A stretch of 64,000 bases of DNA from Candidatus Marinacidobacterium sp. (GTDB lineage: Bacteria; Acidobacteriota; Vicinamibacteria; Marinacidobacterales; Marinacidobacteraceae): contig OZ242011.1 of assembly GCA_965204755.1 (NCBI GenBank), positions 3,040,001 to 3,104,000 of the forward strand, written 5' to 3'. The notes beneath the pieces are model-generated. The model saw only the letters and a program-made list of their open reading frames with translations. It did no database searches and was not told the DNA's origin. Position numbers and translations under genes: made by a program. Positions 19,711 through 47,977 of the stretch are shown here, piece after piece. Position 1 is the first letter of the stretch. Every line of letters begins with the position of its first letter.

Positions 19711-20361
19711 TCACCACCGGGGGGGAGGTCGCGTCGCCCGTCGCTTGGCGCGTCCGACATCCTTCTCGTGGATCCTCTGGAAGTTCGTGAGGAAGATTTC
19801 GTTGTTCACGGTCTGCTTTATGGCGGCCTTGTAGTGATGGCCTTCGCGCTCTCCGAGGAAGAGAGTGAGATGGCGTCCGCTCGGTTCGGTGATCACCGCT
19901 CCCCCTTCGATGACATCCGGAAGCCGGCGATAGTCGTCGAGCGTGAGGTCCGGGTGGCGAACCACCTGCTTCACTGCGCTTTCCGCTGACAGTCGCACGA
20001 CCCGCGCGGGAGGGAACCCCCCTTCCGGCAGGGGCTCCAAGCCGGCTCGCGCCTCGTCGGTCAGGACCGCAACCGGCAATTCGCCGATTCGCGCCTTGAT
20101 GGCGGCGTCCTCGATCTTTATGAACAGCGCCTTTCCGGCATCCGGCAGGACTTCCCGGTAGGCCTCCACTCGCTCGAAGAACCCGGGGAGGACGGGACTC
20201 CCTTCGCCGAGGAGCCGTCGCACCGTCGCGCGGGCGGTCTCCGGGTCGGTGTTCTCGACCCATTCGAGGAGGGCGAGCAGGGCCGCCGGGCCCCGACCCG
20301 TCCGCGGAGGTGAGGCCGCGGGCGGGGGTCGGCTCCTTCGGCGGGGCGGCGCCGGAGGCAT
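19711..20361 (-). CDS. Stand-alone BECR-fold (PBECR2-like) putative ribonuclease 2
   Basis: VVRLSAESAVKQVVRHPDLTLDDYRRLPDVIE...YKAAIKQT...EIFLTNFQR; ATG 20361 lies just past the upstream gene's stop. Confidence 0.68.
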   Translation of the reverse strand: MPPAPPRRRSRPPPAASPPRTGRGPAALLALLEWVENTDPETARATVRRLLGEGSPVLPGFFERVEAYREVLPDAGKALFIKIEDAAIKARIGELPVAVLTDEARAGLEPLPEGGFPPARVVRLSAESAVKQVVRHPDLTLDDYRRLPDVIEGGAVITEPSGRHLTLFLGEREGHHYKAAIKQTVNNEIFLTNFQRIHEKDVGRAKRRATRPPPRW

Positions 20362-20368
20362 CCGGATG

Positions 20369-21583
20369 TCAGCCGGCGCGGGCGGCCGCGGCGGGCGACT
20401 CCGACTCCGCCGACTCCTCCGCCGGAGGCAGGTCCACGCCGACCCCCAGCGGATGGAGGGCGTCGCCGTCCGCCGTCGGTTCCCGGAGGGCGCGAGCCAC
20501 GACATCGTCCGGGGCGCCGTCCGGGGCATCGTCCGGGGCGCGTTCCCGCGCCGAGTCGGCGGCGAGCAGGACCGGGCGGAGCGGCTCCGACAGCCGGCCC
20601 GCCTCCGGGGCCTGGCGGGAGATGCTGGCGTCGGCGGCCTCCCTGGTCAGGAAGTTCACGAACTCCCGCGAGCCGCCCTTCCAGCCGCTCAGGGTCTCGG
20701 CGAGCGCCATCGGGTGCCGCTCTTCGCGCTCGCCGAAGACGCAGCCGGGGTGGTAGGTCCGCACCGCGTTCCCGAAGACGCTGAACCGCCGTCCCACGCG
20801 GTCGCTCAGGACGAAGGTCATCGGCCCGGTGAGGACCGCGACATGGGCCAGCCCGACGGTCCGCCAGGCCAGGTCGGCGACATCGATGGCCGCGGTCTCC
20901 GGGTCGGTCTCGCCGATCTCCAGGCCGGTGAGGAACACCGGGCGCGTCCGCTCCGGGTCGGAGATCAGGTCGATGAGGCCGGCCACGCTCTCGGCGTCCT
21001 GCACCACCCAGGGCGTCGCGCGGAGCCGCCAGCCGTAGTCGGTCAGCCCCGGGGAGTCGGCCAGCCGGCGGACGATCTCCGGCGCGGCGGCCGTGTGCGC
21101 CGCCCTGCCGGTCAGCAGCGTGGCGGAGAGGCGGGTGCAGTCGGTGGTCTCCACCAGGAAGACCTCGACCCGCCAGGCGGCCCGCGGCCGCCGGCGGCGC
21201 TCCACCGCGGCGCCGAAGCACCGGCCGTCCGGGAACTCCCGCTCCTCGGTGACGACGGCGGGGCGCGCGTTCGGGCGGCGGGGCGGGCCGGCCGCCGTCG
21301 GCGTTTCGGGCCGCGCCGGCGGTTCGACGCGCTGCCCGCGGCCCCGGCGGGGGCCCTCCAGGAAGCGGAGGATGCGGTCCCGCGACGCGGCGAACTCGCC
21401 GCCGCGCCCGTCGCGCGCCACATCGGCGCAGACCGCGGCCGCCGGGGCGAGCGCCGCCCGCCCGGACCGGACGCGGCGCGCCGGGCGGCGGTCAGCCGCG
21501 GGAAGGGGATGCGGCGCCGGCTGGCGGGCCGGGAGGGGCAGGGGATTCGGTCGGGGTTGGGGTAGGGTCGGCGGATGGGGCAT
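20369..21583 (-). CDS. Conserved-looking hypothetical protein
   Basis: Globular core DPERTRPV...LAWRTVGLAHV...FSVFGNAVRTYHPG...HPM with host-like codon use; start uncertain. Confidence 0.65.
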   Translation of the reverse strand: MPHPPTLPQPRPNPLPLPARQPAPHPLPAADRRPARRVRSGRAALAPAAAVCADVARDGRGGEFAASRDRILRFLEGPRRGRGQRVEPPARPETPTAAGPPRRPNARPAVVTEEREFPDGRCFGAAVERRRRPRAAWRVEVFLVETTDCTRLSATLLTGRAAHTAAAPEIVRRLADSPGLTDYGWRLRATPWVVQDAESVAGLIDLISDPERTRPVFLTGLEIGETDPETAAIDVADLAWRTVGLAHVAVLTGPMTFVLSDRVGRRFSVFGNAVRTYHPGCVFGEREERHPMALAETLSGWKGGSREFVNFLTREAADASISRQAPEAGRLSEPLRPVLLAADSARERAPDDAPDGAPDDVVARALREPTADGDALHPLGVGVDLPPAEESAESESPAAAARAG

Positions 21584-21646
21584 CGAGCCTCCTGGGGTGG
21601 GGGATTTCCGATGGGGTCGGGGGGAGGTCTCCCGCGGGCGGCGGGT

Positions 21647-21790
21647 GGAGTTCGCCGGCCGGGGGCGGGTGGAGTTCGTCCGCCGGGGGCGGGCGGAGTT
21701 CGTCCGCCGGGGGCAATGGGAGTTCGCCGGCCGGGCGCGAGGGGAGTTCGCCGGCCGGGCGCAGTGGGAGTTCGCCCGGCGGGGGCGGGC
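21647..21790. repeat. 24-bp tandem repeat x6 with invariant GGAGTTCG core
   Basis: ggagttcg at 21647, 21671, 21695, 21719, 21743, 21767. Confidence 0.92.
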
Positions 21791-21801
21791 GGGGGCCGGG
21801 C

Positions 21802-22461
21802 GTGAGCGTCCGGGTCGGGAGCGGGCGGTTCGCGGGTCGGGAACTCCTCGGCCCGCCCCCGGAGCGGCGGCGGCGAGGGACCGCGGCTCCCGGCGGCGGG
21901 ACGCGGCCGACGGCGGCCCGCCTGAAGAAGAGCCTCTTCGCGGTCATCGGCGACGAACTCCCCGGCGCGCGGGTGCTCGATGTCTGCGCCGGGACCGGGG
22001 CGCTGGGCTTCGAGGCCATCTCCCGGGGCGCCGCCGGGTGCGTCTTCCTCGAACGGTCGCGGCCGATGGGGGAGCGGATCGGGAAGAACGCGGAGCGCCT
22101 GGGTCTCGACGGCGCCCGCCTCCTCGCCGGGGACGCCGCCCGCTCGCTCCGCGTCCTCGCCCGCCGCGGCGAGCGGTTCGACGCGGCCTTCTTCGATCCG
22201 CCCTGGAGCGAATGGGAAGAAGGCGGCGCGGCGGCCGCGCTGGCCGCGATCGCGCCTCTCGTTTCGCGCTTCGTCGCCGCCGTCCACCCGGCCGCCCGGA
22301 GCGCTCCGCCGGAAATCCTCACCCCGGAGTCCGCATCGTCCCCCGAAGTCCGCTTCCGGCGCGTCCGGGAGGTCGCGGCGGGGGACGGGGCCTTCTCGCT
22401 CTTCCGGCCCGCCGAGCCGCCGCCCACCGGGCAGGAACCGCCACTCACGCCGATTCCTTAA
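21802..22461 (+). CDS. rsmD: 16S rRNA m2G966 methyltransferase
   Basis: VRVGSGRFAGREL, TRPTAARLKKSLF, VLDVCAGTGALGFEAISRGA, FFDPPW; upstream of coaD. Confidence 0.88.
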   Translation: MSVRVGSGRFAGRELLGPPPERRRRGTAAPGGGTRPTAARLKKSLFAVIGDELPGARVLDVCAGTGALGFEAISRGAAGCVFLERSRPMGERIGKNAERLGLDGARLLAGDAARSLRVLARRGERFDAAFFDPPWSEWEEGGAAAALAAIAPLVSRFVAAVHPAARSAPPEILTPESASSPEVRFRRVREVAAGDGAFSLFRPAEPPPTGQEPPLTPIP

Positions 22462-22623
22462 CGGATGGCCAAGGTTTTCCGCCCACGAAAGCGCCCGGAA
22501 CGCGCCCGGTTCGGATAAGTCGCCTTTTCGCCGCCGAAAACGGCCCCGGAATCCGCCGCCGTCGGGGGCGGGGCGTGTGTTAGGTTTTTCGCCCGCGCCG
22601 GCGGCGCCCCGTTCCCCGACCCG

Positions 22624-23166
22624 TTGCAACCCGTCTCGCCCGAGGGCCGCGTCGCCATCTGCCCCGGGTCGTTCGACCCGCTGACGCTGGGCCATGTGGA
22701 CATCATCCGGCGCGCCGCCCGGATGTTCGACCGGGTGGTCGTGTCCGTGCTCGAGAACACCGAGAAGACGCCGCTCTTCGGCGTGGAGGAGCGGCTCGAC
22801 CTGATCCGCGCCACCTTCCGGGACGAAGACCGGGTGGAGGCGGCGGCGTTCTCCGGGCTCCTCGTGGACTACGCCCGCCGCTCCGGCGCCGGCGCCATCG
22901 TCCGCGGCATCCGCGCGCTCTCCGACTTCGAGTACGAGTTCCAGATGGCGCTCATGAACCGGCGGCTCGCGCCGGAACTCGAAACCGTGTTCCTGACTCC
23001 CGCCGAGGAGTTCTTCTATGTGAGTTCGCGGCTCATCAAGGAGATCGCGGCGCTCTCCGGCGATGTGTCCGGGCTCGTCCCCGAACCGGTGGCCGCCGGA
23101 CTCCGCGAGAAGTTCGCCGCCCGCGCGCCGGCCGCCGGGAGTGCGCCGCCGCCGCCCTCCGCCTGA
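22624..23166 (+). CDS. coaD: Phosphopantetheine adenylyltransferase
   Basis: CPGSFDPLTLGHVDII, RGIRALSDFEYEFQMALMNRRL, VSSRLIKEIA. Confidence 0.96.
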   Translation: MQPVSPEGRVAICPGSFDPLTLGHVDIIRRAARMFDRVVVSVLENTEKTPLFGVEERLDLIRATFRDEDRVEAAAFSGLLVDYARRSGAGAIVRGIRALSDFEYEFQMALMNRRLAPELETVFLTPAEEFFYVSSRLIKEIAALSGDVSGLVPEPVAAGLREKFAARAPAAGSAPPPPSA

Positions 23167-23180
23167 AGGAGACCCCGCCC

Positions 23181-24371
23181 ATGACCGGAAACAACCCGAA
23201 ACTCGCGGCGCGCGTCCGCGCCATCGCCCCCTCGCCCACGATGGCGGTCATGGCGGAGGCGCTGCGGCTCAAGGCCGCCGGCGAGGATGTGGTGGACTTC
23301 TCCGCCGGCCAGCCGGACTTCGACACGCCGGAAGTGGCCCGCGCCGCCGGCGTCGCCGCCATCGAGTCCGGCTACACCCGCTACACCCCGAACCCCGGCG
23401 CCCCGGAACTGCGCGAGGCGGTCGCGGAGAGTTACCGGCGCGACTTCGGCCTCGACTGCGACGCCCCCCAGGTGCTCATCACCAGCGGCGGCAAGCACGC
23501 CCTCACCGGGCTGCTGCTCGCCACCTGCGAGGAGGGTGACGAGGTCCTGGTCTCCACCCCCTACTGGCCGACCTTCCCGGAGCAGGTGAAGATCGTGGGC
23601 GCCACCCCGGTGATCGCCGAGACCTCGGCCGCCGACGGCTTCCGCCCCACCCGCCGGAGCATGGAGCCGGCGGTCACCGACCGCACCCGGCTCATCATCC
23701 TGAACATCCCGGGGAACCCGTCGGGCGTGGTGCTGCCCCCGGACGAGTTGGAGGCGGTGGCGAAGTTGGCGCTGGACGCGGACGCCTACCTCCTCTGGGA
23801 CGACACCTACGCCCGCCTGACCTTCGAGCCCGCCCCGGAAGGCGCCTACCGGCGGATGGCGGACATCCTGGGGCACCGCTTCCTCATCGCCGGCGGCGCG
23901 TCGAAGTCCTACGCGATGACCGGCTGGCGCCTCGGCTGGGCCATCGGCGACGCGGCCATCATCAAGGGCGCGGCGTCGCTCCAGAGCCAGATGACCTCGA
24001 ACGCCTGCTCCATCTCCCAGCGCGCGGCGCTCGCGGCGCTCCGGGAGGACCCGAAGGAGTTCGCCTGGATGAGCCGGGAGTTCGCCCGCCGCATGGAGCG
24101 GATGCGCGGCCTGCTCCTGGGGATCGAGGGCGTCCGCTGCGAGGCCCCGGACGGCGGCTTCTACCTGTTCCCGGACTTCGCGGCGCGTTTGGGGGAGGGC
24201 GAGGGCTCGCAGGCGCTGGCGACGGCGCTGTTGACTTCGGAGCGCGTGGCGACGGTGCCGGGGGCCGCTTTCGGGTGCGACACGCACCTGCGGTTCAGTT
24301 ACGCGACTTCGGACGAGCAGATCGACAAGGGCCTGGCCCGCGTCCACAACTTCTTCGCCCAGCGAGGCTGA
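23181..24371 (+). CDS. PLP-dependent aminotransferase class I/II (aspartate aminotransferase-like)
   Basis: AGQPDFDTP, NIPGNPSG, SKSYAMTGWRLGW, VPGAAFG, LRFSYATS. Confidence 0.92.
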   Translation: MTGNNPKLAARVRAIAPSPTMAVMAEALRLKAAGEDVVDFSAGQPDFDTPEVARAAGVAAIESGYTRYTPNPGAPELREAVAESYRRDFGLDCDAPQVLITSGGKHALTGLLLATCEEGDEVLVSTPYWPTFPEQVKIVGATPVIAETSAADGFRPTRRSMEPAVTDRTRLIILNIPGNPSGVVLPPDELEAVAKLALDADAYLLWDDTYARLTFEPAPEGAYRRMADILGHRFLIAGGASKSYAMTGWRLGWAIGDAAIIKGAASLQSQMTSNACSISQRAALAALREDPKEFAWMSREFARRMERMRGLLLGIEGVRCEAPDGGFYLFPDFAARLGEGEGSQALATALLTSERVATVPGAAFGCDTHLRFSYATSDEQIDKGLARVHNFFAQRG

Positions 24372-24413
24372 GACGGCGGCGCCGAGGAACGAGGTCCAGA
24401 CGGAGAGCGCGCC

Positions 24414-26945
24414 ATGAGAAACATGTACGCGTGGGTCCCGTGGTTTCGGCAACTCGCCGCACGGATCGCCGAAGGCGGCAAGGAGGGACTCATCGAGCGC
24501 GTCAAGAGCGTGGTGTGGGAGGAAAAGAGTCCAGCCCTTCTGGAGTTCGGCGACAAGTACATTGATCCGCTGTCATTCCTGAACCATCTTGCGTCCGTAG
24601 ATCTGGCGATGACATCCGTCAGCAGCGTGTTCGATGTGGATGCCGAAATTCCCCAAGACGACGACTGGGCGCTCATCTTTCCTACGGTCTTCCACTTGAA
24701 GGCGCCTCTGGGTGAGCAAGAGACCTATGACCCAGACCTTCTGTGGGCTCTCTTCCGGCAGGCCGTCCCGGACAAGGCGAAGATCGACGCGAACACCTTC
24801 GACTCTGTTCTGAACTTGCCGCAGGTGGGCGTCTTCAACCTCACGTCGGCTCTCTGTCTGACCAATGCTCACTCGTTCCTGCCCCTCGGAAAGAAAGCCA
24901 TCGCTCTGGGCAAGAAGGTGCAGACGCTGAGCGGGTTGGGAAAGTGCAAGAAGAAGACATTCACGCTCTCTACCTACGAAGCCATCATGCGCCAAGCCCG
25001 GAAAGCATTCCCCGGGTGCCGCATGTACGAGATCGGGAGGTTCCTGTACGAACACGGATCTTGGGACACAGGGCTCGTCTCCAAGGAATCATCGTCCTTC
25101 CACATCAGCACCAAACTCAAGGGGGACAAGGGGCCGGACTTCTGGAACGAATTCGAGCGGGACAATTCTGTCTGGACGGCTGGCAAGGCGTCCGCGATCG
25201 CATGGGACGTCCCGCTGCCATCGGGAAAGAAGCCCTACCCTGTGACTGAGCCGGAAGCGGGCGACATCATGCTCGTTCGGTGTGGTACCGGGCAGGGTCG
25301 CGGCATCGGGGTTGTCCTGCACAACGATTACGCGAAGGAGGGCGGCCTCCGGCCGAGCAGTCGCATTCATGTGGTCTGGATCAACAAGTCTCGAACCGTT
25401 CTGGCAAAGCCATCACCGAGATTCGCCATGGATCGTGCTGCGAGCGCGGATCGAGGCGCTCTCCCCGGATTTGGGAAGAGCGACGACTACCGGTCGTCCT
25501 TCGATCTGTTTCGCGATCTCGACGTTCCGGTTCCTAACGGGCATCCACTTCCGCGAAGGAAACAGCACTTGAACCAGATCCTCTACGGGCCACCCGGAAC
25601 CGGGAAGACTTGGAACACGGTGGCGTGCGCCGTTTCGATGATTGAAGGGCGCGAAGTTGCAGCGGAAGACCGGGGAGAAGTCAAGAAGCGGTTTGAGGAG
25701 TACCGCAGGGTGGGCCAAGTGGAGATGGTCACCTTCCACCAGAACTACGCCTACGAAGACTTCGTTGAGGGTATTCGCCCGACGGTGGAGGACGCATCCG
25801 CCGAGGGGGTCGGCTATGTGTTGCGTCCCGGTGTCTTTCGCGAAATGGTGGAGCGAGCAGCGCAGAATCTCAGAACATCGCAAACGGTGGAGAAGGACGC
25901 GTGGACGTCTCAGGAAGTCGTTCAGGGGTTCCTTGAGTGGATCAGGAGTGAGACTGCTTCCGGCGGAGCAAAGCGGCTGGCGAAGGGTGCCGGTGGTCGC
26001 GACATCCTCGTGTCGGGCGTGTACGAAAGCCGGGATGGAGACATCGCCGGAGTGCAGCTCGGCGGTACGACAAACCAGAAGCTGTTTCGACGCGTTCTGG
26101 ACCGGGATTACCGTGCCTTTCACGATGGGGGCATCACGGAGTACACGGAAATCGGCCGAACGAGGCCCGGGTCTTCGACATGGCACGGCCAAGCCGTCTA
26201 TTTCTTCGAACTCCTGAAGATGGTGAGGAAGTACCACAAGGATGTGTGGCGCCGGCCGGAGCGGAAGGCGATCGAGCGCAGGAACTTCGTTCTCATCCTC
26301 GATGAGATCAACCGAGGGAACATCGCGCGGATTTTCGGGGAACTCATCACGCTGGTGGAGGAATCCCGACGGATCGGGCGCGGGGATGAGACGAAGGTGA
26401 CGCTGCCAAACTCCGGGGACGAGTTCGGCGTTCCGGAGAACCTGTATCTCATCGGGACCATGAACACGGCGGACCGGTCGATCGCCTTGCTCGACACGGC
26501 GCTTCGGCGAAGGTTCGAGTTCGTGGAGATGATGCCGGACTCGTCGCTCTTGGACCGGGAAGTCGCCGAAGTCCACCTCGGCAGCCTGCTCGATGCCATG
26601 AACGAGCGGATTCGCTTCCTGCGCGACCGGGAACATCAGATCGGCCACACCTACTTCCTCGAAGTGTGCGACCTCGAGGGACTGAGGAGGGTGTTCCAGA
26701 ACCGTATCCTTCCGCTGCTGCAGGAGTACTTCTACGACGACTGGGCGAAGATCGAGGCGGTGCTGGGCAAGAACGGGTTCGTCGAGTCCGTGGAGCCCCC
26801 GCCGGGACTGGCCGGAGGGGACCTCGTGGACGCGGGCGCGAAGTCCTACGAACTGCTGTCGTTCGACGACGGGAAATGGGGAGAGCCGGCGTCATACCGG
26901 AAGATCTACGAGAAACCGGCAGGGGGCGGCGCGAAGGACGAATGA
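24414..26945 (+). CDS. mcrB: McrB-family AAA+ GTPase (type IV restriction) with uncharacterised N-terminal domains
   Basis: NQILYGPPGTGKT, VTFHQNYAYEDFVEG, LILDEINRGN, IGTMNTADRSIALLDTALRRRF, IGHTYF, ILPLLQEYFYDDW. Confidence 0.9.
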   Translation: MRNMYAWVPWFRQLAARIAEGGKEGLIERVKSVVWEEKSPALLEFGDKYIDPLSFLNHLASVDLAMTSVSSVFDVDAEIPQDDDWALIFPTVFHLKAPLGEQETYDPDLLWALFRQAVPDKAKIDANTFDSVLNLPQVGVFNLTSALCLTNAHSFLPLGKKAIALGKKVQTLSGLGKCKKKTFTLSTYEAIMRQARKAFPGCRMYEIGRFLYEHGSWDTGLVSKESSSFHISTKLKGDKGPDFWNEFERDNSVWTAGKASAIAWDVPLPSGKKPYPVTEPEAGDIMLVRCGTGQGRGIGVVLHNDYAKEGGLRPSSRIHVVWINKSRTVLAKPSPRFAMDRAASADRGALPGFGKSDDYRSSFDLFRDLDVPVPNGHPLPRRKQHLNQILYGPPGTGKTWNTVACAVSMIEGREVAAEDRGEVKKRFEEYRRVGQVEMVTFHQNYAYEDFVEGIRPTVEDASAEGVGYVLRPGVFREMVERAAQNLRTSQTVEKDAWTSQEVVQGFLEWIRSETASGGAKRLAKGAGGRDILVSGVYESRDGDIAGVQLGGTTNQKLFRRVLDRDYRAFHDGGITEYTEIGRTRPGSSTWHGQAVYFFELLKMVRKYHKDVWRRPERKAIERRNFVLILDEINRGNIARIFGELITLVEESRRIGRGDETKVTLPNSGDEFGVPENLYLIGTMNTADRSIALLDTALRRRFEFVEMMPDSSLLDREVAEVHLGSLLDAMNERIRFLRDREHQIGHTYFLEVCDLEGLRRVFQNRILPLLQEYFYDDWAKIEAVLGKNGFVESVEPPPGLAGGDLVDAGAKSYELLSFDDGKWGEPASYRKIYEKPAGGGAKDE

Positions 26946-28162
26946 CGGAGATCGTCGTTCGGGAGCACAAGGAGATCAGGGGACTCGACGACACCGAGAG
27001 CGAGGCATTGAGGCGCCTTGCTCAGGAGGCGGAGTGGGGCGGGCTCGCCGTGAGGCACGGCGGGCTGTACGCGACGAACTATGTCGGGATCGTGGAGGCG
27101 AGCAGGAAGACCAGCGTCGTCATTCTGCCGAAGGTGGACTTGGCGAAGCCGGACCCGAACCTCGAAGGAGCGAAGGCCGCGTTCCTCAAGATGTTGCGGG
27201 ATTGGCGCGGGCTCCACGAAGCGCAGTTTCCCGAGGCGTCTATCCGCGATCTCGAGCGCTTCGAGATGTGGGAGGCGTTCTACTACCTGTTCCTGCGCAG
27301 CGTCGTCCGGCTGGCGCAGCGCGGGTTGGCCCGGCGGTACCGCACGGTGGAGAACGACTTGCCGTTCCTCCGGGGCCGCATCCGGTTTCCGGAGCACCTG
27401 CGCCGCAACTTGGTGAACCGCGCCCGGTTCTTCGTCGGTTACGACGAGTTCTCGGCGAACCGGCCCTCGAACCGACTGATCCGGACGACTCTCGACGAAT
27501 TGGCGACGCGGGCGAAGCGGCCGAGGAACACGCAACTGCTCCACGGCCTGCGAGTGGTGTTCGCCGACATTCCACCCTCCGCGCAGCCCGCGGTGGATTG
27601 GGAGCGTCGGCTGGTGGATCGCTCGATGCGCCACTACGGCGAGGTGCTGCCCTGGGTCGGGCTCCTCCTGTTCCACCACGGCCTCGCCACTTTCGCCGGG
27701 AAGCACCGCAACCGCGCGCTCCTCTTCCCCATGGAGGAGGTCTTCGAGGACTTCGTTACCGCCTCCTTCCGGCGCCACCAGACGGACTACCGCGTTCATT
27801 CCCAAGGCCCGATGCGGCCCTTGGTCGAAACGGAGGACGGAAGAGGCGCCTTCCAAATGAAGCCGGATATCTCGCTCATGAAGGGGGGTAAGCCCTCGTT
27901 CATCCTCGACGCCAAGTGGAAGCGGCTCGCGGCCCCGGCTGCCGACCCGAAACTCGGTATCGTCCAAGCCGACCTCTACCAACTTTTCGCCTACGGCAAG
28001 AAGTACGGCGTCCCCGAAGTGGCGCTGATCTATCCGAAGTCGGAGGCGTTCTCGAAACCTGTCCGCTACCGTTTCGACAAGGACCTGTCGCTCGTTTGCT
28101 TTCCCTTCGATGTGGAGGCGCCCGGAAAGAGCGTGAACGATCTACTCGGCCATCTGCAGTAG
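26942..28162 (+). CDS. mcrC: McrC-family PD-(D/E)xK nuclease subunit
   Basis: NYVGIV, ILPKV, LLFPMEEVFEDFV, MKPDI, ILDAKWK, QADLYQLFAYG; ATGA overlap with mcrB. Confidence 0.9.
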   Translation: MTEIVVREHKEIRGLDDTESEALRRLAQEAEWGGLAVRHGGLYATNYVGIVEASRKTSVVILPKVDLAKPDPNLEGAKAAFLKMLRDWRGLHEAQFPEASIRDLERFEMWEAFYYLFLRSVVRLAQRGLARRYRTVENDLPFLRGRIRFPEHLRRNLVNRARFFVGYDEFSANRPSNRLIRTTLDELATRAKRPRNTQLLHGLRVVFADIPPSAQPAVDWERRLVDRSMRHYGEVLPWVGLLLFHHGLATFAGKHRNRALLFPMEEVFEDFVTASFRRHQTDYRVHSQGPMRPLVETEDGRGAFQMKPDISLMKGGKPSFILDAKWKRLAAPAADPKLGIVQADLYQLFAYGKKYGVPEVALIYPKSEAFSKPVRYRFDKDLSLVCFPFDVEAPGKSVNDLLGHLQ

Positions 28163-28194
28163 AACAGGCCGCGTGAACCGCGGCGGGCCGGGAG

Positions 28195-30803: not shown

Positions 30804-30807
30804 GCCG

Positions 30808-40190: not shown

Positions 40191-40997
40191 GTGGGCCGCC
40201 GCCGTCCGACCGCGCCGGTCGGGCCCGTCGGTTTTGTCGCACTCCTGCTCGCCGCCGCCGGCGCTGCGGGTGGCGAACCGCGCTGCCCCGAAGACCCGCC
40301 GCCGGCCCCCGGGGCCTGCCCGAGCGAATCCCCTTCGGGGAATTCCGCCGAGTCCGCCCCGGTCGGCGGAAGCCAGCCGACGCCGGTGCGGGCCGGGCCG
40401 GTGTTCACCCCCGGCGGCGGGTGGTCGCGCGCCGAGGTCGGGCTGCTCATCGGCAGCCAGCGGGTGAACGAGGACCTCGGCTTCTCCACGAACATCTTCC
40501 AGACCGTTTCCGCCGCCGCGCAGGATGTGGGGTTCGGCGAGCACTACGGGGCGCGGGGCTCGGTCTTCTTCAACCGCTACTTGGGCGTCGAGGGCGCGTT
40601 CACCCGCACCCGCACCTCCTTCGAGTTCTCGATCTCCGACGAGGAGGCGGGCGTGAACATCCTCGCGGAGAGCCTGGTGCGGAGCAGCACCGAGTTCGCC
40701 GGCGCGCTCGTCGGGCAGTTCCCGCTCTCCGCGATGACCCCCTACGCCGCCCTCGGCTACGGCTCGGGGAACGCCTCGGTGGGGGACGGGGACGACTTCC
40801 GCAGCGGGGCGTTCGTCCTCGGCGGCGGCGTCAAGGTGCCGTTTCCCCAACTCCCGTTCCTCCTCACCCTCGACTTCCGCTTCTTCCGCTACCGGGAGGC
40901 GAACGCCGCGCTCCAACTCGCCGAAGGCGGCCGCCCCCCCTCCGCCACCGTCCTCACCGTCGGCGTGATGTTCCGCCTCGGGCCGTCTTCCTCCTGA
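40191..40997 (+). CDS. Outer membrane beta-barrel protein
   Basis: Amphipathic strands, TPYAALGYG, GGGVKV, terminal VGVMFRL. Confidence 0.7.
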   Translation: MGRRRPTAPVGPVGFVALLLAAAGAAGGEPRCPEDPPPAPGACPSESPSGNSAESAPVGGSQPTPVRAGPVFTPGGGWSRAEVGLLIGSQRVNEDLGFSTNIFQTVSAAAQDVGFGEHYGARGSVFFNRYLGVEGAFTRTRTSFEFSISDEEAGVNILAESLVRSSTEFAGALVGQFPLSAMTPYAALGYGSGNASVGDGDDFRSGAFVLGGGVKVPFPQLPFLLTLDFRFFRYREANAALQLAEGGRPPSATVLTVGVMFRLGPSSS

Positions 40998-41106
40998 GGG
41001 CGCGCCGTCCCCGGACGACTCCGGACCGCGGGGCCGCCCGGCGCGGCTAGAATCGGTTTCCCCCGGCGCTCCGTCCGCGCCGGGCCCGGGGCGGGGCGTT
41101 GCGAAA

Positions 41107-41178
41107 GCCGGTGTAGCTCAGGGGTAGAGCAGCTGATTCGTAATCAGCAGGTCGGTGGTTCGAATCCACTCGCCGGCT
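41107..41178 (+). tRNA. tRNA-Thr(CGT)
   Basis: Cloverleaf; GCTGA-TTCGTAA-TCAGC anticodon arm; GGTTCGAATCC T-arm; CCA not encoded. Confidence 0.96.
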
Positions 41179-41231
41179 CCGCGCGGCCCCCCCCTCCCGC
41201 CGCGCCCGACGGGGGCCTCCGCCGCGGGCGG

Positions 41232-42269
41232 TCAGGGCTCGTCGCTCACCAGTTCGCGGTCGGTGATGCCGCCGAGTTCGTGCACATCGTCGGCGCGGCC
41301 GATCAGGATCAGCGTGTCGTTCGCCCGGATGCGGTGGTCGCCGGTGGGAGCGAAGACGAAGCCGCCGTCGTCGCGCTGGATGGCGAGGACCAGCACATTC
41401 CGCCCGGGGTTGATGGCGGCCTGCGACAGGGTCCGGCCGTCGTGTTCCGAGCCCGGCGCCACATGGAGCCGCCCGCCGTCGAAACCCTCCCGGACCATCT
41501 GTTCGATCCCCCGGAACACCCGGGCCATGTGCACCCCGCTGAGGCTGTGGAGCACCCACTTGCCGGCGGTGGTGTAGGGGGACACCACATCCTGCGGTTG
41601 CGCTCCGGCCCGGTGCAGGTTGTTCCGCGACCGCTCGTCCTCGGAACGGGCGACGATCCGGATGTCCCCGTTCAGCGCGCGGGCGGTCATGGCGATGGAG
41701 AGGTTGTCGGGGTCCGAAGGGAGGAGCGCCGCGATCGCCTCCGCGCGCTTCAGGCCCGCTTCGACGAGCACCTCCTCGGCGGTCGCGTCCCCGGCGATCG
41801 CGGCCACGCCCCGTTCGCGGAACTGCGCGACCTTCTCCGCGGACTTCTCGATCACCACGAACTCCCGGTCCTGCGCGATGAGTCCTTCGACGACCGGCCG
41901 GGCGATGCGCCCGCCGCTGCAGATGATGGTGTGGTCTTGCATCCGACGAATCCTCCGTAGGTGGCGGCGGCCGTGTCCGGTGACGATGCGGTCGCCGAGT
42001 TCGCGCAGCGCGAATCCCAGCGTGGCGACGCCGCCGAGGATGAGGAAGGCGGCGAACATCCTCCCCCCCTCGCTGAGCGGGCGGACCTCGCCGAAGCCGA
42101 CGGTGGAGAGCGTGATCACCGTCATGTAGAACGCTTCGCGCAGCCCCCAGCCCTCGATCACCATGAACCCGGCGGTGCCGGCGAGGAAGACCAGCGCCGC
42201 CGCGCCGACGAGCGCCCGCTGCGGGCGCGAACTCTTCGCCGTTCGCGGCGGAAGGGGAAAGGCGGTCAA
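41232..42269 (-). CDS. Potassium channel protein with TrkA-N/TrkA-C (RCK) domains
   Basis: YMTVITLSTVGFGE pore motif, HTIIC, GDATAEEVL. Confidence 0.9.
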   Translation of the reverse strand: MTAFPLPPRTAKSSRPQRALVGAAALVFLAGTAGFMVIEGWGLREAFYMTVITLSTVGFGEVRPLSEGGRMFAAFLILGGVATLGFALRELGDRIVTGHGRRHLRRIRRMQDHTIICSGGRIARPVVEGLIAQDREFVVIEKSAEKVAQFRERGVAAIAGDATAEEVLVEAGLKRAEAIAALLPSDPDNLSIAMTARALNGDIRIVARSEDERSRNNLHRAGAQPQDVVSPYTTAGKWVLHSLSGVHMARVFRGIEQMVREGFDGGRLHVAPGSEHDGRTLSQAAINPGRNVLVLAIQRDDGGFVFAPTGDHRIRANDTLILIGRADDVHELGGITDRELVSDEP

Positions 42270-42329
42270 GACCCGGCGGTCCCGGCCCGGTTCTCAACGG
42301 GCCGTAAACAAAATCCCTCCCCGGTCCGG

Positions 42330-42402
<73 letters not shown>

Positions 42403-42567
42403 TCCGGACCGGGGAAGGAACCGGGAATACTAGGCCGCCTCCCGTTCTTCGTCAACTCGCGCGGGCGTCGGCGAGCCCCTCCGGCAAGCGTTAGCATCCG
42501 CGCCGCCGCGCCGGCCTTTCCTCCTTTCCGGAGTCTTGAGTCGAGGCCTCCGCCGCGGCCTGAGTCC

Positions 42568-43596
42568 GTGCCCGATACCGCGCCCCCTTCCCCGTCACTG
42601 TCCCCGTCCGAGGTCGAGGCCGCCCTCGAAGCCCTCGCCGCGCTGACCGACGACGCCGGGATCGAGGCCTGGCGGACGAAGCACCTGGGCCGGAAGTCCC
42701 GGCTGCAGACCGCGCTCAAGGGCCTCTCCGCGCTCGACCCGGCCGACCGGGCCGCCGCCGGGCGCGCGCTCAACGAGGCGAAGACCCGGCTACGCGCCGC
42801 CCTCGACCGGAAGCGGGCCGAGGAAGAGGCCCGCCGCCTCGAGAGCCGGCCGCCGCTCGATGTCACCCTGCCCGGCCGCCCGCTCCCCTCCGGCCGGCTC
42901 CACCCGATCACCCTCACGGAACGCGCCATCGTTTCCTCGTTCGCCCGGATGGGCTTTTCGGTGATCGAAGGGCCGGAGGTGGAACTCGACTACTACAACT
43001 TCGAGGCGCTGCGCATCCCCGCCGACCACCCGGCCCGCGAGGCCATGGACACCTTCTACCTGGCTCCCGGCGCGGGCCGCGGGGACGCCGCCGGGCCGCC
43101 GCTCCTGCTCCGCACCCACACCTCGCCGAACCAGATCCGCTTCATGGAGCGGAACGCGCCGCCGATCCGCCTGGTCTCGCCGGGCCGCACCTACCGGAAC
43201 GAAGCCACCGACGCGACCCACGAATGGATGATCACCCAGACCGAGGTGCTCGCGGTGGACCGGGGGCTGACGCTCGCGCACCTGAAGGGGACGCTCTACG
43301 AGTTCGCGCGCCACCTGTTCGGCGAGGACCGGGAGATCCGGTTCCGCTGCGACTACTTCCCGTTCGTCGAGCCGGGCGTGGAAGTGGCGGTGAGCAGCCC
43401 CGGCGGCTGGATCGAGATCCTCGGCGCCGGGATGGTGCACCCGGAGATCCTGGAGCGCATGGGTTTCGACCCCGAGGAATACACCGGCTTCGCCGCCGGG
43501 CTGGGCGTGGAGCGGATCGCCATGCTGCGTCACGGCATCGACGACATCCGCCGCTTCTACGAGAACGACCTCCGCTTCCTGGAGCAGTTCCGGTGA
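42568..43596 (+). CDS. pheS: Phenylalanyl-tRNA synthetase alpha subunit
   Basis: [53 protein letters not shown]. Confidence 0.97.
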
Positions 43597-43621
43597 CCGG
43601 GCCCGGCGGCCCTCCGGCGTA

Positions 43622-46132
43622 GTGCGCGTCCCGCTTTCCTGGCTCGGGGAATTCGTCCCGCTGCCGGCGGACCGCGAGGCCCTGGCGCAGCGCCTGACCT
43701 CCGCCGGCGTCGAAGTCACCGCCGTCGAGCGCATCGGCGGGGACTGGGAGGGGGTGGTCGCGGGCCGGGTGCTCGAGGTGGCGCCCCACCCGAACGCCGA
43801 CCGCCTGCGGCTGGTCACCGTGGCCGTCGGCGGCGAGGAACCGCCTCCGCCGGTGATCTGCGGCGCCCCGAATGTGGCCGCCGGGCAAATGATCGCCTTC
43901 GCCGGGGAAGGGGCGGTCCTCGCCGACCCGGCCACCGGCAAACCGCGCAAGTTGAAGAAGTCCCGCATCCGGGGGGTGGTCTCCGCCGGGATGGTCTGCT
44001 CCGAGGCGGAACTCGGCCTCTCCGGCGAGCACGCCGGGATCCTGGTCCTCGACGACATCCTCGACGCCGGGGCCGAGCCGGGGACGCCGCTCCGGGAAGT
44101 CCTCGGCGATCAGGTCTTCGTCCTCGACCTGACGCCGAACCGGGCGGACGCGCTCTCGATGGTCGGCCTCGCCCGCGAGGTCTCGGCGCTCACCGGCGCG
44201 CCGCTCGCGCCCTGGCCTACCGAACCGGAAGCCGCGGGGCCGGGGATCGCCGGGCGGGCGTCCGCGGAAATCGCGGACCCGCGGCTCTGCCGGCGATTCA
44301 CCCTCGCGCTCATCGAGGGCGTCGAAGTCGGCCCGTCGCCGGAGTGGATGCAGGCCCGGCTGACCGCCGCCGGGCTCCGGCCCATCAACAACCTGGTGGA
44401 CATCACGAACTATGTGATGCTCGAATGCGGGCAGCCGGTCCACGCGTTCGACTACGACCGGGTGGCGGAGCACCGGATCATCGTCCGGCGGGCGGAGGCC
44501 GGCGAGACGCTGGTCACGCTGGACGGGAAGGAGCGCGAACTCGACCCGGAGCGGCTGGTGATCGCCGACCCGTCGGGGCCCGTCGCCCTCGCCGGGGTCA
44601 TGGGCGGCCGCGACACCGAGATCACCGGGGACACGCGCAACCTGCTGCTGGAGGCGGCGAACTTCGACCCGGTGAGCGTCCGGCGCACCGCCCGCCGCTA
44701 CGACCTGTTCACCGACGCGGCGCGCCGCTTCGCCTGGGGGCTGCCGCCGGAGTCGGCGCCGATCGCCTCCGCCCGGGTCTGCCGGCTCCTCGAACGCCAC
44801 GCCGGGGGGCGGGTGGCCGCCGGCCGGGTGGATGCGTGGCCGGCGCCCGAACCGAGCCATGCGATCCGCCTCCGCCGCTCGCGGATCCCGCAGGTGCTGG
44901 GGATGGCCCCGTCGGACGAGGCCGTCGAAGGGGCGCTCACCCGCTTGGGTTTCGGGGTCGAGCGGGAGGAGGGGGCGGACGGGGCGAGTGGCGGCGCGGA
45001 GGAAGCGGGGCTCTCGGTGACCGTCCCCCGGTGGCGGCGCGATGTGCGGTTGCCGGACGACCTGGTCGAGGAAGTCGCGCGGGTCCTCGGCTACGACGAC
45101 CTCCCGGCGGCGCCGCTCGCCGGCGCCATCCCCCACCACTCGCCGCTCCCCGCGCGGGCGCTGCGGGAGCGGGTGCGGGACCTGGGCGCGGCGGCGGGGC
45201 TCAGCGAAGTGATGACCTACTCGCTGGTCTCGGACGCGGACCTCGCGGCGGTGCTCTCCGAGGACGCCCGCCGCGCCTCGCCGGCGCTGCGGGTGGCGAA
45301 TCCCCTGGGCGAGGCGCGCGACTCGCTGCGCACTTCGCTCCGTCCGGGAGTGCTGCGCGCCGCCGCGCTGAACTTCGACCGGGGCGCCTCGAGCGTGGCG
45401 CTGTTCGAGGTCTCCCGCGTCTATCGGCCGGGGGCCGACGGAGGCGACGGCCGGCCCGAAGAGGCGGAGTGCGCGGCGGCGGTGGTCGCCGGCGCCCGGC
45501 TCGACCGGTTCGGGCATCCCGTCGCGGAGCGGCTGGACTTCTTCGACGCGAAGGCGACCCTGGAGCGGGTGCTCGCCGGGCTGGGACTCTCGCCGGAGTT
45601 CCGGGCGGTCGAGGAGTTCGGGTATGTCCCCGGACGGACGGCGGAAGCGCGGATCCCGCTCGGCGGCGGCGGGAAGTCGGTCCGGGTCGGGACGATCGGG
45701 CAGGCGGCCCCGGCGTCCGCGGCGGCGTTCGGGTTGGAGGAAGAGGCCTTCGCCTGGGAACTCGACCTCGCCGCGCTGCTCCGCGCCGAACCGGACGGTC
45801 TCACCGCGCCGGCCGCCGCCTCCCCGCTGCCGCGGTTCCCGGCGGCGGCGGAAGACTTCGCGTTCCTGGTCCCGGAGGACACTCCGGCCGGGGCGCTCGC
45901 GCGGGAGGCGGAGAGCCACCCGCTCGTCGTCGAGGCGCGGGTCTTCGACGACTACCGACTCACCGAGGGGCAGGGCGCAGAAGCCGCCCCCGGTTCGCGT
46001 TCCCTGGGTCTCCGCGTGCTCTACCGCGCGCCGAACCGGACGCTGAACGAGAACGACATTGCCAAAGTCCGAAGGACGATCTTGAAGCGGTTGAAGTCGA
46101 GTCTCGGTGCAGTCGTTCGGGACCGCGCCTGA
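43622..46132 (+). CDS. pheT: Phenylalanyl-tRNA synthetase beta subunit
   Basis: HPNADRL, CGAPNV, LTPNRADALS, RPINNLVDITNYVMLE, DLVEEVARVLGYD, YRAPNRTL. Confidence 0.97.
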   Translation: MRVPLSWLGEFVPLPADREALAQRLTSAGVEVTAVERIGGDWEGVVAGRVLEVAPHPNADRLRLVTVAVGGEEPPPPVICGAPNVAAGQMIAFAGEGAVLADPATGKPRKLKKSRIRGVVSAGMVCSEAELGLSGEHAGILVLDDILDAGAEPGTPLREVLGDQVFVLDLTPNRADALSMVGLAREVSALTGAPLAPWPTEPEAAGPGIAGRASAEIADPRLCRRFTLALIEGVEVGPSPEWMQARLTAAGLRPINNLVDITNYVMLECGQPVHAFDYDRVAEHRIIVRRAEAGETLVTLDGKERELDPERLVIADPSGPVALAGVMGGRDTEITGDTRNLLLEAANFDPVSVRRTARRYDLFTDAARRFAWGLPPESAPIASARVCRLLERHAGGRVAAGRVDAWPAPEPSHAIRLRRSRIPQVLGMAPSDEAVEGALTRLGFGVEREEGADGASGGAEEAGLSVTVPRWRRDVRLPDDLVEEVARVLGYDDLPAAPLAGAIPHHSPLPARALRERVRDLGAAAGLSEVMTYSLVSDADLAAVLSEDARRASPALRVANPLGEARDSLRTSLRPGVLRAAALNFDRGASSVALFEVSRVYRPGADGGDGRPEEAECAAAVVAGARLDRFGHPVAERLDFFDAKATLERVLAGLGLSPEFRAVEEFGYVPGRTAEARIPLGGGGKSVRVGTIGQAAPASAAAFGLEEEAFAWELDLAALLRAEPDGLTAPAAASPLPRFPAAAEDFAFLVPEDTPAGALAREAESHPLVVEARVFDDYRLTEGQGAEAAPGSRSLGLRVLYRAPNRTLNENDIAKVRRTILKRLKSSLGAVVRDRA

Positions 46133-47258
46133 CCCTCCGGGTCGGGCCGTCCGCCGCTCCGCCGCCGGCGGGCGCCCCCGCCCGCGGCCCCGCGAACGCT
46201 CCGGCGGGCGTTCGTCGGGCGGGCGCCCAACCGACGGACATCCCGCCGACGGACATCCTGCCGGCGAACATCCCGCCGGCGGGGCGGCGCTGTCGGGCGA
46301 CCTCATCGCCGCCTCCCCCCGGATGCGGGCGCTCCTCCGGGACGCCGCCCGGATCGCGCGTTTCGATGTCCCGGTCCTGATCGAAGGGGAGACCGGGGCC
46401 GGGAAGGAACTGCTGGCGCGGTTCCTCCACCGGGAGAGCCCCCGGCGCCGCCGGGCGCTGGTCGCCGTGAACTGCGGCGCGGTCCCGGACGACCTCCTCG
46501 AGGCGGAGTTCTTCGGCCACGCCCGCGGCGCGTTCACCGGGGCCGCCGAGGCCCGCGCCGGGCTGGTCGAGGCGGCGGACGGGGGCACGCTCTTCCTCGA
46601 CGAAGTCGGCGAACTCTCGCCGAGGGCCCAGGCGCTGCTGCTGCGCGTCCTGCAGGAGCGCGAGTACCGGCGCGTCGGCGAAACCCGCGTCCGCCGCTCC
46701 GACTTCCGGCTGGTTTCGGCCACCCACCGCGCGCTGGCCGACCTCGTTGCCGCCGGGTCGTTCCGGGCCGACCTGTTCTACCGGCTGGCGGTGGCGCGCG
46801 TCCGCATCCCGCCGCTCCGGGAGCGCTGCGACGAGTTCGGGGAGATCGCGGCGGGCCTGCTCGCCCGCCTCTCCCGGCGCTACCGGATCCCGGTGCCGGA
46901 GGTCTCCCCGGAGGCGCTCTCCGCCCTCGCCGCCCGCCCCTGGCCGGGCAACATCCGCGAACTCGAGTCCGCGCTCGCCGCCGCCGTCCTCTCCCGCCCC
47001 GGCGCTGCCCGGCTGGAACCGGAGGACTTCTCCGCCGCGCCGCCGCCCGAAGCGGCGCCGACCGGGGAATCCCGCCCCGCCGCCGCAGCGCCGGCGGCGG
47101 ACGGACGGGCCCTCTCCGAAGCCCTCGCCGCGTTCGAGCGCCTGTTCCTGCTCGCCGCGCTCCGGCGCGCCTCCGGCAGCCGCGCGGCGGCGGCGAGATC
47201 GCTCGGCATCACCCGCCAGGGGCTCTGGCGAAAACTCCGCCGCCACGGCATCCGCTGA
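46107..47258 (+). CDS. Sigma-54-dependent transcriptional activator (AAA+ and Fis-HTH, no evident sensor domain)
   Basis: GETGAGKE, FFGHARGAFTGA, LFLDEVGE, FRADLFYRL, WPGNIREL, HTH; true start probably after pheT stop. Confidence 0.9.
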   Translation: MQSFGTAPDPPGRAVRRSAAGGRPRPRPRERSGGRSSGGRPTDGHPADGHPAGEHPAGGAALSGDLIAASPRMRALLRDAARIARFDVPVLIEGETGAGKELLARFLHRESPRRRRALVAVNCGAVPDDLLEAEFFGHARGAFTGAAEARAGLVEAADGGTLFLDEVGELSPRAQALLLRVLQEREYRRVGETRVRRSDFRLVSATHRALADLVAAGSFRADLFYRLAVARVRIPPLRERCDEFGEIAAGLLARLSRRYRIPVPEVSPEALSALAARPWPGNIRELESALAAAVLSRPGAARLEPEDFSAAPPPEAAPTGESRPAAAAPAADGRALSEALAAFERLFLLAALRRASGSRAAAARSLGITRQGLWRKLRRHGIR

Positions 47259-47269
47259 CCGGCCTCGAA

Positions 47270-47860
47270 ATGCGGAGGGAGCCGGGCCCGGTCGCGACGG
47301 AAGACCACCTCGAAGAGGCCGCCGGCGCCGACTACGCCCTCGCCCGCCGCCGCGTCCGCTCCATCGTCGGGGGCCCGGCGTTCGACCGCTTCCTTCGCCA
47401 AGTGAGGGACTACCGCAACCGAACCTACCCGCCGGAGGCGAAGAGAGTCCACCGGGTACGGATGAAAGACGAAGACAAGGCTCGCATCGGACATCTCTTC
47501 GTCGCCGCGCTGGGCGATTCGGCGCGCCAAGTCCTGCCGCCGCCTCCGGGCCTCGGGGCTACGCCGACCCGCCTGGTGCGGCTGTCCCCGGAAACTGCGG
47601 TCAAACAGGTACTCCACCACGGAGACCTGACGCCGGCCGACTACCGACGGATCCCCGACCTCATCGAAGACGAACGCTTCCAGAAGACGGGCGACCGTAA
47701 ACTGGCCTTCTTCGGCTACTACGATGGCCAATGGCGCCGCGCCATCGTGAAGCAAGCCACGAGCGCCGACGAGCTCTATCTCGCCAGTTACCACAAGGCT
47801 CGCCCGAACCAAGTCCCCGAGTCCGTCCGCACGGAACGGGAGCAGTCACAACGGGACTAG
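47270..47860 (+). CDS. Stand-alone BECR-fold (PBECR2-like) putative ribonuclease 3, paralog of 19711..20361
   Basis: KARIGHLFVAAL, LVRLSPETAVKQVLHHGDLTPADYRRIPDLIE, AIVKQA, ELYLASYHK. Confidence 0.68.
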   Translation: MRREPGPVATEDHLEEAAGADYALARRRVRSIVGGPAFDRFLRQVRDYRNRTYPPEAKRVHRVRMKDEDKARIGHLFVAALGDSARQVLPPPPGLGATPTRLVRLSPETAVKQVLHHGDLTPADYRRIPDLIEDERFQKTGDRKLAFFGYYDGQWRRAIVKQATSADELYLASYHKARPNQVPESVRTEREQSQRD

Positions 47861-47977
47861 GTGGCGCACGGTGGGGCCCGCAATCCGAGCAACGCTCGGC
47901 AACCCCACGTAACGCGCTGTCCCCGTAAGGGGAACTGGCTACGGCTTGCGGAGTATTACCGTGTCACGTGCGCCGCC
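47860..47977 (+). ncRNA. Putative structured RNA family B, copy 1 (subtype x)
   Basis: Abuts TAG; GGCGCAC/GUGCGCC, CCGAGC/GCUCGG, UCCCC-GUAA-GGGGA, CCGCAA/UUGCGG pseudoknot. Confidence 0.68.

Follow-up and report, generated by a model that had tools for sequence, protein, structure and literature searches.

Domains of the PBECR/MuF-C type belong to phage polyvalent proteins and MuF proteins and were described by Iyer, Burroughs, Anand, de Souza, and Aravind in 2017 (PMC5512222), in a paper whose available portions give the active site as a His in the helix plus an S/T in the last strand. The system described here resembles them in its C-terminal fusion to MuF and its solo forms, in its layout of a helix plus strands, in the helix His and last-strand S/T, and in structure matches to "MuF C-terminal domain" and polyvalent proteins. 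With the MuF polymorphic toxins, as covered in the accessible part of Jamet et al. 2017 (PMC5576092), it shares a MuF N terminus with a variable, effector-like C terminus, a partner encoded immediately downstream, and displaced or orphan modules in tandem. It also recalls the type III toxin-antitoxin systems ToxIN, CptIN, and TenpIN (PMC3401426 and PMC8860590, in excerpt) by its predicted metal-independent endoribonuclease-type protein beside a repeated, folded, and family-specific RNA on the same strand, by its cognate protein and RNA families, and by its links to phages and defense. The loci in question lie in a stretch of 64,000 nucleotides (nt), here called the window, from Candidatus Marinacidobacterium sp. 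(contig OZ242011.1); it has 72% G+C and spans positions 3040001-3104000 of a host assembly that is a single contig of 3.98 Mb. Three genes in it, nuc1, nuc2, and nuc3, are followed on their own strands by structured RNAs of two families, A behind nuc1 and B behind nuc2 and nuc3. Our interpretation of the whole, offered tentatively and as somewhat short of probable, is that each pair consists of a phage-derived MuF C-terminal (MuF-C) domain and a cognate RNA, with the RNA serving as a specific ligand and likely inhibitor of the domain.

The genes and RNAs are given below, with RNA copies located by covariance models, R1 built for B and R2 built for A.

18871-19368, minus strand: nuc1, 165 amino acids (aa), A-type free-standing domain protein, within the A clade of the protein tree.
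19711-20361, minus strand: nuc2, B-type free-standing domain protein, 216 aa from an ATG at 20361; the longest open reading frame (ORF) extends to 20529.
47270-47860, plus strand: nuc3, B-type free-standing domain protein, 196 aa.
17351-18864, minus strand: tandem array after nuc1, period of ~351 nt, last unit partial.
18698-18864, 18349-18514, 17994-18163, and 17643-17808, minus strand: the full A copies after nuc1, R2 matches of 156-169 bits.
19581-19695, minus strand: single family B RNA after nuc2, 15 nt past the stop, R1 match of 121.7 bits.
47860-48733, plus strand: array of four family B RNAs after nuc3, two alternating subtypes, repeat unit of ~524 nt.
47860-47977, 48091-48210, 48384-48501, and 48616-48733, plus strand: the individual B copies after nuc3.
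52296-52412, plus strand: orphan family B RNA, R1 match of 99.8 bits, between the genes for a DUF1156 methylase and a BNR-repeat protein.

The system also departs from each of these precedents. It misses the Pfam PBECR3 cutoff and has a partner RNA, whereas the available portions of PMC5512222 predict RNA cleavage or binding by PBECR/MuF-C domains without a partner RNA. Unlike the MuF toxins of PMC5576092, as presented in the part at hand, it has an RNA rather than an immunity ORF as the downstream partner, most window copies have no MuF part, and toxicity is putative. With regard to the type III systems, the proteins are of another fold and family, not ToxN, CptN, or TenpN (no Pfam match at E ≤ 1; RelE/BECR fold matches). 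The RNA lies downstream of the gene and not upstream, no terminator stands between the two, several loci have a single copy, and the units are 115-170 nt long with variable spacers, in contrast to the head-to-tail repeats of 34-45 nt in the accessible text of PMC3401426. By the criteria of Blower et al. 2012, as set out in that same text, the system falls outside the known type III families.

Alignment of nuc2 with nuc3 runs along their length at 38-39% identity (176-182 aa; tblastn E values of 4e-24 and 3e-24), with the KARIG, VRLS, AVKQV, and DYRR motifs exactly where an initial annotation of this stretch had put them. nuc1 matches nuc2 at 33% identity across 72 aa (E of 0.002-0.004) and nuc3 at 28% across 71 aa (E of 0.01), also by tblastn, and is by sequence a distant paralog of both. 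The alignment bears out two further features noted for nuc1 in that annotation: the ~25-aa KARIG segment is absent, and a basic (R/K-rich) insert lies between the conserved KQ and the His; a second insert is found between strands. The RNA copies located by R1 and R2, B behind both nuc2 and nuc3 and A behind nuc1, likewise agree with it. The probable start of nuc2 falls 7 nt past the stop of the upstream gene, and a profile search of representative proteins returned a 216-aa representative (P0012).

It is well supported that the three genes are free-standing copies of the domain at the C terminus of the MuF minor head protein, with a BECR/RelE-like (PBECR-related) ribonuclease (RNase) fold. The window genes themselves have no N-terminal MuF part (starts at 19368, 20361, and 47270), and none of their products matched Pfam at E ≤ 1, PHROGs, or PADLOC. 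The host genome contains ~9 paralogs by tblastn. One of these (L002, 422 aa) has matches to Phage_Mu_F (E of 2.8e-15) and to phrog_220, annotated as "minor head protein and DNA pilot" (E of 2e-84), has an A-type domain at its C terminus, and lies downstream of terminase and portal genes with an A RNA directly after it. Among 1.84 billion proteins, a profile of the paralogs retrieved 748 representatives with E ≤ 1e-3; 10 long representatives were scanned, of which 8 have an N-terminal Phage_Mu_F domain, 2 a weak PBECR3 match, and 1 a pre-toxin PT-TG domain immediately before the family domain. Within the same-genus genome G001 (Candidatus Marinacidobacterium), 9 of the 14 genes examined include an in-frame MuF part, in both types and sometimes in tandem, as does a gene of another genome (G021_3394k). 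A truncated Mu-like head module was seen at 3956000-3975858 of the host genome, composed of terminase and portal genes, a DNA-methyltransferase-like stretch, a MuF gene with an A-type tail, and an A RNA; next comes a Mu-type transposase gene (phrog_310) in place of protease and capsid genes.

Structure prediction points the same way. The AlphaFold2 (AF2) model of nuc3 made from a 106-sequence alignment has a predicted local distance difference test (pLDDT) score of 92.8 and comprises a helical N-terminal half followed by a helix and a four-stranded sheet (H107-116, E137-141, E144-151, E154-162, and E169-177); a single-sequence AF2 model with a pLDDT of 39 was set aside. Its top match in the PDB is the RelE-family RNase toxin BrnT (probability of 0.99, E of 0.022, target template modeling [TM] score of 0.61) and the second is a chain of a contact-dependent inhibition (CDI) toxin complex, while in BFVD the matches (best E of 3.5e-6) are to minor capsid proteins, to polyvalent proteins, and to proteins labeled "MuF C-terminal domain." K112 and Q113 are near-invariant in the alignments, a His stands in the consensus KQxxxHP, and an S/T in the last strand, "L.SFHR"; this combination fits the PBECR active site as described in the excerpted text of PMC5512222. 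The Pfam gathering cutoff for PBECR was missed (PBECR3 at 15.5-19.3 bits versus 30, in 4 proteins only, and no match to other PBECR models), and the window proteins gave nothing against the PBECR models at E ≤ 1. The term "nuclease" is a reasonable reading at the level of fold, with the activity being predicted.

Families A (~170 nt) and B (~115 nt) are structured RNAs with strong covariation, well above controls. In 42 distinct B copies from several genomes, pairing stands at 95.5%, versus at most 48% in a control with the partners slid, and both sides change in 13 of 24 pairs. The corresponding values for 50 copies of A are 94.6%, at most 55%, and 14 of 30 pairs. In A, moreover, three of the G-U pairs are near-fixed (49/49, 46/50, and 36/50 copies); these would be C-A on the opposite strand, and A is therefore read on the gene strand. 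The two families have the helix start GUGGGGCC in common, which the initial annotation took to be all that they share; they also share a 3′ tail motif, GRR..UAGCRC, which sits some 15-25 nt past the closing helix and is present behind phage copies too. A possible pseudoknot in B would join GGGG (columns 16-19) with CCCC (columns 46-49) across the well-supported helix 21-25/93-97, and it is unproven because these bases never vary.

Several other identities for the elements were considered. RNA copies differ from each other by 1-2-nt indels and no frame with gene-like codon bias exists in 47861-48750, which rules out small proteins there; the A array has only weak antisense frames, with a G+C content at third codon positions (GC3) of 0.73. 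An HDV (hepatitis delta virus)-like ribozyme was dropped for B, since the same nested strand order needs the unproven GGGG/CCCC pairing. The loop and joiner lengths of B do not match those of HDV-like ribozymes. Integron attC-like DNA sites were ruled out by the fixed G-U pairs of A, the presence of several helices, and units without intervening genes, and no integrase was found among the neighboring genes scanned. At the gathering cutoff, Rfam 15 found only 2 tRNAs in the whole window, and both RNA regions gave only noise at E ≤ 5. Among the phage-associated motifs of Rfam, Mu-gpT-DE is similar in being a structured RNA just after a head gene of Mu-like (pro)phages; it differs in following T, whereas the RNAs here follow F/gp30. 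We found no description of the A and B RNAs in the literature, although the supplementary motif lists of large RNA-discovery papers could still contain one.

Scans for sigma-70 promoters returned nothing, and 46000-49200 contains no terminator-like sites. Of 17 sequencing runs found to contain the region, none is recorded as RNA. In the A array, 4 such sites were found versus 2.0 expected, all within A copies or repeat units. At 18787-18802 and 18086-18101 (minus strand), in A copies, a hairpin GCUCGGCAAGCCGAG is followed by a U-rich run with a terminator-like score, which is unusual for a G+C-rich genome, and other aligned A copies have a comparable pyrimidine/U-rich stretch behind the hairpin.

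The array unit of 351 nt after nuc1 combines the final ~120 nt of the nuc1 frame with a family A RNA (repeat search and tblastn of the nuc1 C terminus). Arrays of unit RNAs next to a predicted metal-independent RNase resemble the layout of a precursor and its processing enzyme, and it is conceivable, if improbable, that the RNA does the work, with the protein as either a maturase that trims arrays to units or a carrier into the capsid or the next host. The RNA would then act as a decoy, an anti-defense RNA, or a structural cofactor, as the pRNA of phi29 is. Yet the spacers that separate the units range in length from 82 to 279 nt with no common processing signal visible, and none of the results suggests a target for the RNA. 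This reading also draws on the annotation of MuF as a virion "minor head protein and DNA pilot," on the absence of the last-strand His from many A-type proteins, and on the RNA-binding role that Iyer et al. (PMC5512222, in its accessible sections) predict for the inactive MuF-C domain of phage Mu, but the free-standing copies have no MuF part for capsid entry. A ligand that acts on the domain, probably as an inhibitor, remains our preferred role for the RNA.

We then compared proteins and RNAs across 101 related genomes, which include the host genome of the window (G000) and G001. B occurs in 7 of these, A in 5, and the protein in 8, all from one family-level group. An RNA lies directly downstream on the same strand for 28 of 31 genes; in 27 of these 28, its start ranges from 94 nt within the frame to 15 nt past the stop, and in all 28, from five to seven genomes, the RNA type equals the protein type. 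The KARIG-type insert is found in 10/10 B-followed proteins and 0/18 A-followed proteins. On a maximum-likelihood tree (quick method, 39 rows), a check that the initial annotation had proposed, the 18 A-followed proteins form one clade (support of 98 in the Shimodaira-Hasegawa-like approximate likelihood ratio test, SH-aLRT), and the A/B split is therefore a single event. B-followed proteins lie at the base of the tree in no resolved order, alongside double-domain forms.

A comparison of two orthologous loci lends further weight, past that of this one split. At the pheT/sigma-54-activator locus, G000 has nuc3 and four B RNAs, and G001 has an A-type gene and four A RNAs. At the recG/HEC-07-like locus, B pairs are found in G001, G024, and G027, a B pair and then an A pair in G000, and an A-type gene followed by A and then B in G014 and G021. 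Protein and RNA change together at cassette exchange; if cassettes move as units, the same outcome is expected without selection for matching. Mixed arrays, with A then B behind an A-type protein, occur in G014, G021, and G001, arrays reach 7 RNAs, and orphan RNAs are present. Taken together, these results uphold the proposal in the initial annotation that the elements are not generic intergenic repeats, as they are structured, lie on the gene strand, start at or next to the stop, match the protein type in 28 of 28 cases, and are exchanged as A pair for B pair at two orthologous loci, with 60 of 64 phage copies behind a family gene (see below). Its further proposal of cognate, co-evolving pairs stands as regards the type match; co-evolution is one possible reading beside co-inheritance, given the single A/B split (SH-aLRT of 98).

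It is also important to mention some individual loci. Two genes, one in the host genome (1183771-1184397, minus strand) and one in G001 (1769124-1769957, plus strand), have two family domains per frame. Neither A nor B RNA follows them, and what lies downstream in place of the RNA is a convergent coding stretch that is conserved. We considered a third RNA family behind these double-domain genes and set it aside, as the conserved stretch resembles a convergent coding gene. In G007, the B copy has no upstream protein match and is 437 nt away from the end of a contig. At 2041874-2042221 of the host genome, two A copies in opposite orientation are separated by 12 nt, and a 38-aa fragment of the 3′ end of an A-type gene precedes one of them. 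In G001 (1520k, 3833k, and 3542k), G021 (2400k), and G014 (3912k), the frame enters the first A hairpin by 67-94 nt, and these genes share a "G(T/A)APGSP" protein tail that arises from the overlap of the gene 3′ end with the A RNA.

Could all of this be debris, that is, gene fragments and 3′ untranslated regions of decaying Mu-like prophages, duplicated by chance and matched in type through shared descent? We consider this very improbable. One copy does sit in a truncated Mu-like head module beside a transposase gene, the A/B difference goes back to one event, a gene copy in G027 is frameshifted, some frames run into the RNA, and the orphan at 2042k is associated with a gene fragment. However, the free-standing genes have intact open frames with a GC3 of 0.82 and conserved family residues, the changes between RNA copies are compensatory and not random decay, the tree has long, separately evolving branches, and the same position behind the HEC-07-like gene is kept in two genera and 7 genomes.

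For phages and metagenomes, loci were picked by an RNA seed fixing the GGUGGGGCC and CCCCAC motifs, and the scan covered 80 of the 97 stretches from IMG/VR viral contigs and, from metagenomes, 80 of at least 119. R1 matched 64 of the 80 viral stretches at 67-105 bits. A family gene lies upstream on the same strand in 61 of the 64, ending between -60 and +150 nt from the RNA in 60; one of the 3 viral B-like RNAs without an upstream gene has only 33 nt of upstream sequence. The 55 distinct phage copies show the strongest covariation, with both sides changing in 19 of 24 pairs and 93.7% paired. A true B-like RNA was found in 6 of the 80 metagenome stretches, and 5 of these lie behind a full MuF gene (394-420 aa), at a distance of -5 to +22 nt. 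The metagenome MuF proteins before B-like RNA have neither the KARIG segment nor the basic insert. The KARIG segment, which the initial annotation had treated as the companion of B, thus does not specify the B type, because KARIG-free phage MuF proteins precede B-like RNA. An insert-free protein with a B-like RNA looks, on the same comparison, like the ancestral form, and the A pair looks like a derived, lineage-specific one.

Searches for relatives by other routes were mostly negative. The A-RNA seed hit 2 stretches among viral contigs, neither with a full A RNA, and the exact A hairpin seed was found among the species genomes in the same-genus genome only. A B-type alignment gave 72 pattern matches in metagenome contigs and no relative, and a blastn search of GenBank phages with one phage RNA copy gave no match. 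In Haemophilus phage SuMu, R1 has a weak match exactly at the MuF stop (16.8 bits, E of 0.024 in 6.2 kb), which is suggestive only. The MuF and G-like genes of SuMu are separated by 570 nt (1992-2565 of stretch L308), where only a 66-aa hypothetical ORF is annotated. Overall, it is well supported that the pair comes from Mu-like phages, in which a B-like RNA separates the MuF gene from the head gene that follows, and the protein-RNA pairing is common in such phages and apparently undescribed.

The layout in phages also bears on a different role for the RNA. Among 10 scanned loci, the gene after the RNA is Mu G-like (phrog_26) at 11-24 nt in 4 and a head protease at 198-324 nt in 4, each phage locus has one RNA copy, and in several phages the conserved 3′ tail motif overlaps the ribosome-binding site of the next gene (e.g., GGAAGAUAGCC-AUG). 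It is possible that the RNA works in cis within the phage late operon, as an operator or a processing site, where MuF-C would bind or cut it and so set the expression of the downstream genes (Mu G-like, protease/scaffold, and capsid) or its own; the acidobacterial copies would then be a kept autoregulatory pair or remnants. RegB, a phage protein with the BECR fold, is known to cut phage mRNAs (PMC5512222, in excerpt). Nevertheless, we judge this unlikely, if a serious contender: the host genome has no downstream gene to regulate, the RNAs there nonetheless retain invariant motifs, show compensatory changes, and reach 7-fold multiplication, and orphan copies and mixed arrays would have no obvious role.

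Around the pairs in the window lie several genes of interest. Those directly upstream of nuc2 and nuc3 are as follows.

20369-21583, minus strand: HEC-07-like protein, 404 aa, PADLOC HEC-07 E of 2.5e-43, positions 104-301 of 553 of the hidden Markov model (HMM).
46107-47258, plus strand: sigma-54 activator, Pfam AAA+ and Fis helix-turn-helix domains, PADLOC RtcR_PspF2 positions 166-480 of 481.

HEC-07 is an Hma-embedded candidate defense protein that combines AdoMetDC-like, thioredoxin-like, and C-terminal RelE-family RNase domains in one protein (bioRxiv 10.1101/2024.01.29.577857, in the part available). The gene upstream of nuc2 corresponds to HEC-07 in the N-terminal region only, has no RelE domain, and ends in ~80 aa of low complexity; an RNase-fold module comes next, as the RelE domain does in HEC-07, but here it is a separate gene of another family with an RNA. 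A HEC-07-like gene upstream of the nuclease-RNA cassette is kept in 7 genomes of two genera (including G001, G014, G021, G024, and G027). The sigma-54 activator gene comes directly after pheT and 12 nt upstream of nuc3; ~65 low-complexity residues precede its AAA+ domain, it has no sensor domain (no receiver, no CARF), its PADLOC match is confined to the AAA+ and helix-turn-helix portion, and its G001 ortholog precedes an A-type cassette. The arrays in the host genome end against a convergent recG or unrelated genes.

Other parts of the window have genes of a defense type. At 24414-28162 (plus strand), an McrB-like AAA_5 ATPase (843 aa) and McrC (498 aa) are encoded at 62-64% G+C, versus ~72%, and this McrBC pair is probably an acquired type IV restriction module. 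The region 48950-58635 (plus strand) has the DUF1156 methylase (1091 aa), the orphan B RNA, the BNR/sortilin-repeat protein (52420-55557), and two AAA_21/AAA_15 ATPases downstream of it (55558-57390 and 57391-58635), and may be a defense island with embedded genes.

What is observed, in phages and bacteria and in two matched types, is a specific and conserved genetic coupling of the domain with a structured RNA that starts at the stop codon. From this we infer that the RNA is a ligand of the domain, and, by analogy with type III antitoxins, it is probably an inhibitor. We favor the inhibitor role because the domain occurs after a pre-toxin domain and also where a RelE toxin domain would otherwise stand, because the RNA occupies the immunity-gene slot of MuF toxins (PMC5576092, in its available sections), because the arrays and orphans resemble patterns of dosage and orphan immunity, and because the bacterial loci have nothing downstream to regulate. 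It is well supported that, in the acidobacterial lineage, the pair has become detached from MuF and has been copied to a number of chromosomal sites, some of them next to defense-type genes, with the RNA multiplied into arrays, and that it has split into two matched types, an apparently ancestral B and an apparently derived A in which protein and RNA both changed. The RNA would keep the RNase-like domain inactive, like a type III antitoxin RNA or an immunity gene; with the RNA on the same transcript, the last-translated domain would encounter it first. Arrays could raise the RNA dose, orphan and mixed arrays might act like orphan immunity genes against incoming MuF proteins, and the clade-specific protein inserts would be candidate determinants of RNA recognition.

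A number of observations weigh against this interpretation. Gene order, unit length, and spacing are unlike those of known type III systems (PMC3401426, as excerpted). In phages the RNA is single-copy within an operon, often 11-24 nt before the next start and with the ribosome-binding site as its tail, a layout as compatible with a regulatory or processing site as with an inhibitor. There is no RNA behind the two double-domain paralogs or behind one G003 gene, the latter being on a 1.5-kb contig. The A/B match derives from a single deep split together with cassette moves, and linkage alone could yield it; at the level of sequence, co-inheritance and co-evolution are not separable. The RNase-toxin fold match is weak by E value (0.022), and the PBECR3 scores of 15-19 bits are below the cutoff of 30. 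Finally, the last-strand His, which is among the conserved positions of colicin-like BECR proteins in the accessible text of a 2026 preprint, is retained in most B-type proteins and gives way to Y, R, or F in 11 of the 17 A-type proteins and in those phage MuF proteins that were inspected. Some family members may therefore bind RNA without cutting it, and this partial loss leaves room for a purely RNA-binding role.

The MuF-C (PBECR-type) domain is common in phages, and a covarying RNA directly after it is a concrete candidate for its substrate or partner; the literature examined, in the portions available, predicts RNA cutting or binding and names no RNA partner of this domain. The presence of A and B pairs in one genome amounts to a natural experiment in specificity. 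Should the RNA instead be an operator or cleavage site, it would be a new regulatory element of Mu-like head operons. In its broadest form, which we think doubtful, the idea is of an RNA "immunity factor" for a phage-delivered RNase, that is, a new and widespread toxin/RNA-antitoxin class with large (115-170 nt), pseudoknotted RNAs, which would have originated in a Mu-like head module and been domesticated by bacteria beside defense genes, as an RNase effector kept safe by its RNA, its arrays of diverse RNAs forming an immunity repertoire against incoming MuF proteins. If the RNA does inhibit the domain, RNA antitoxins would extend past the three known type III families, and an RNA would take the "immunity gene" slot of polymorphic-toxin-like systems. 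For the acidobacterial host, the HEC-07-like neighbor points to reuse of the pair as a defense effector.

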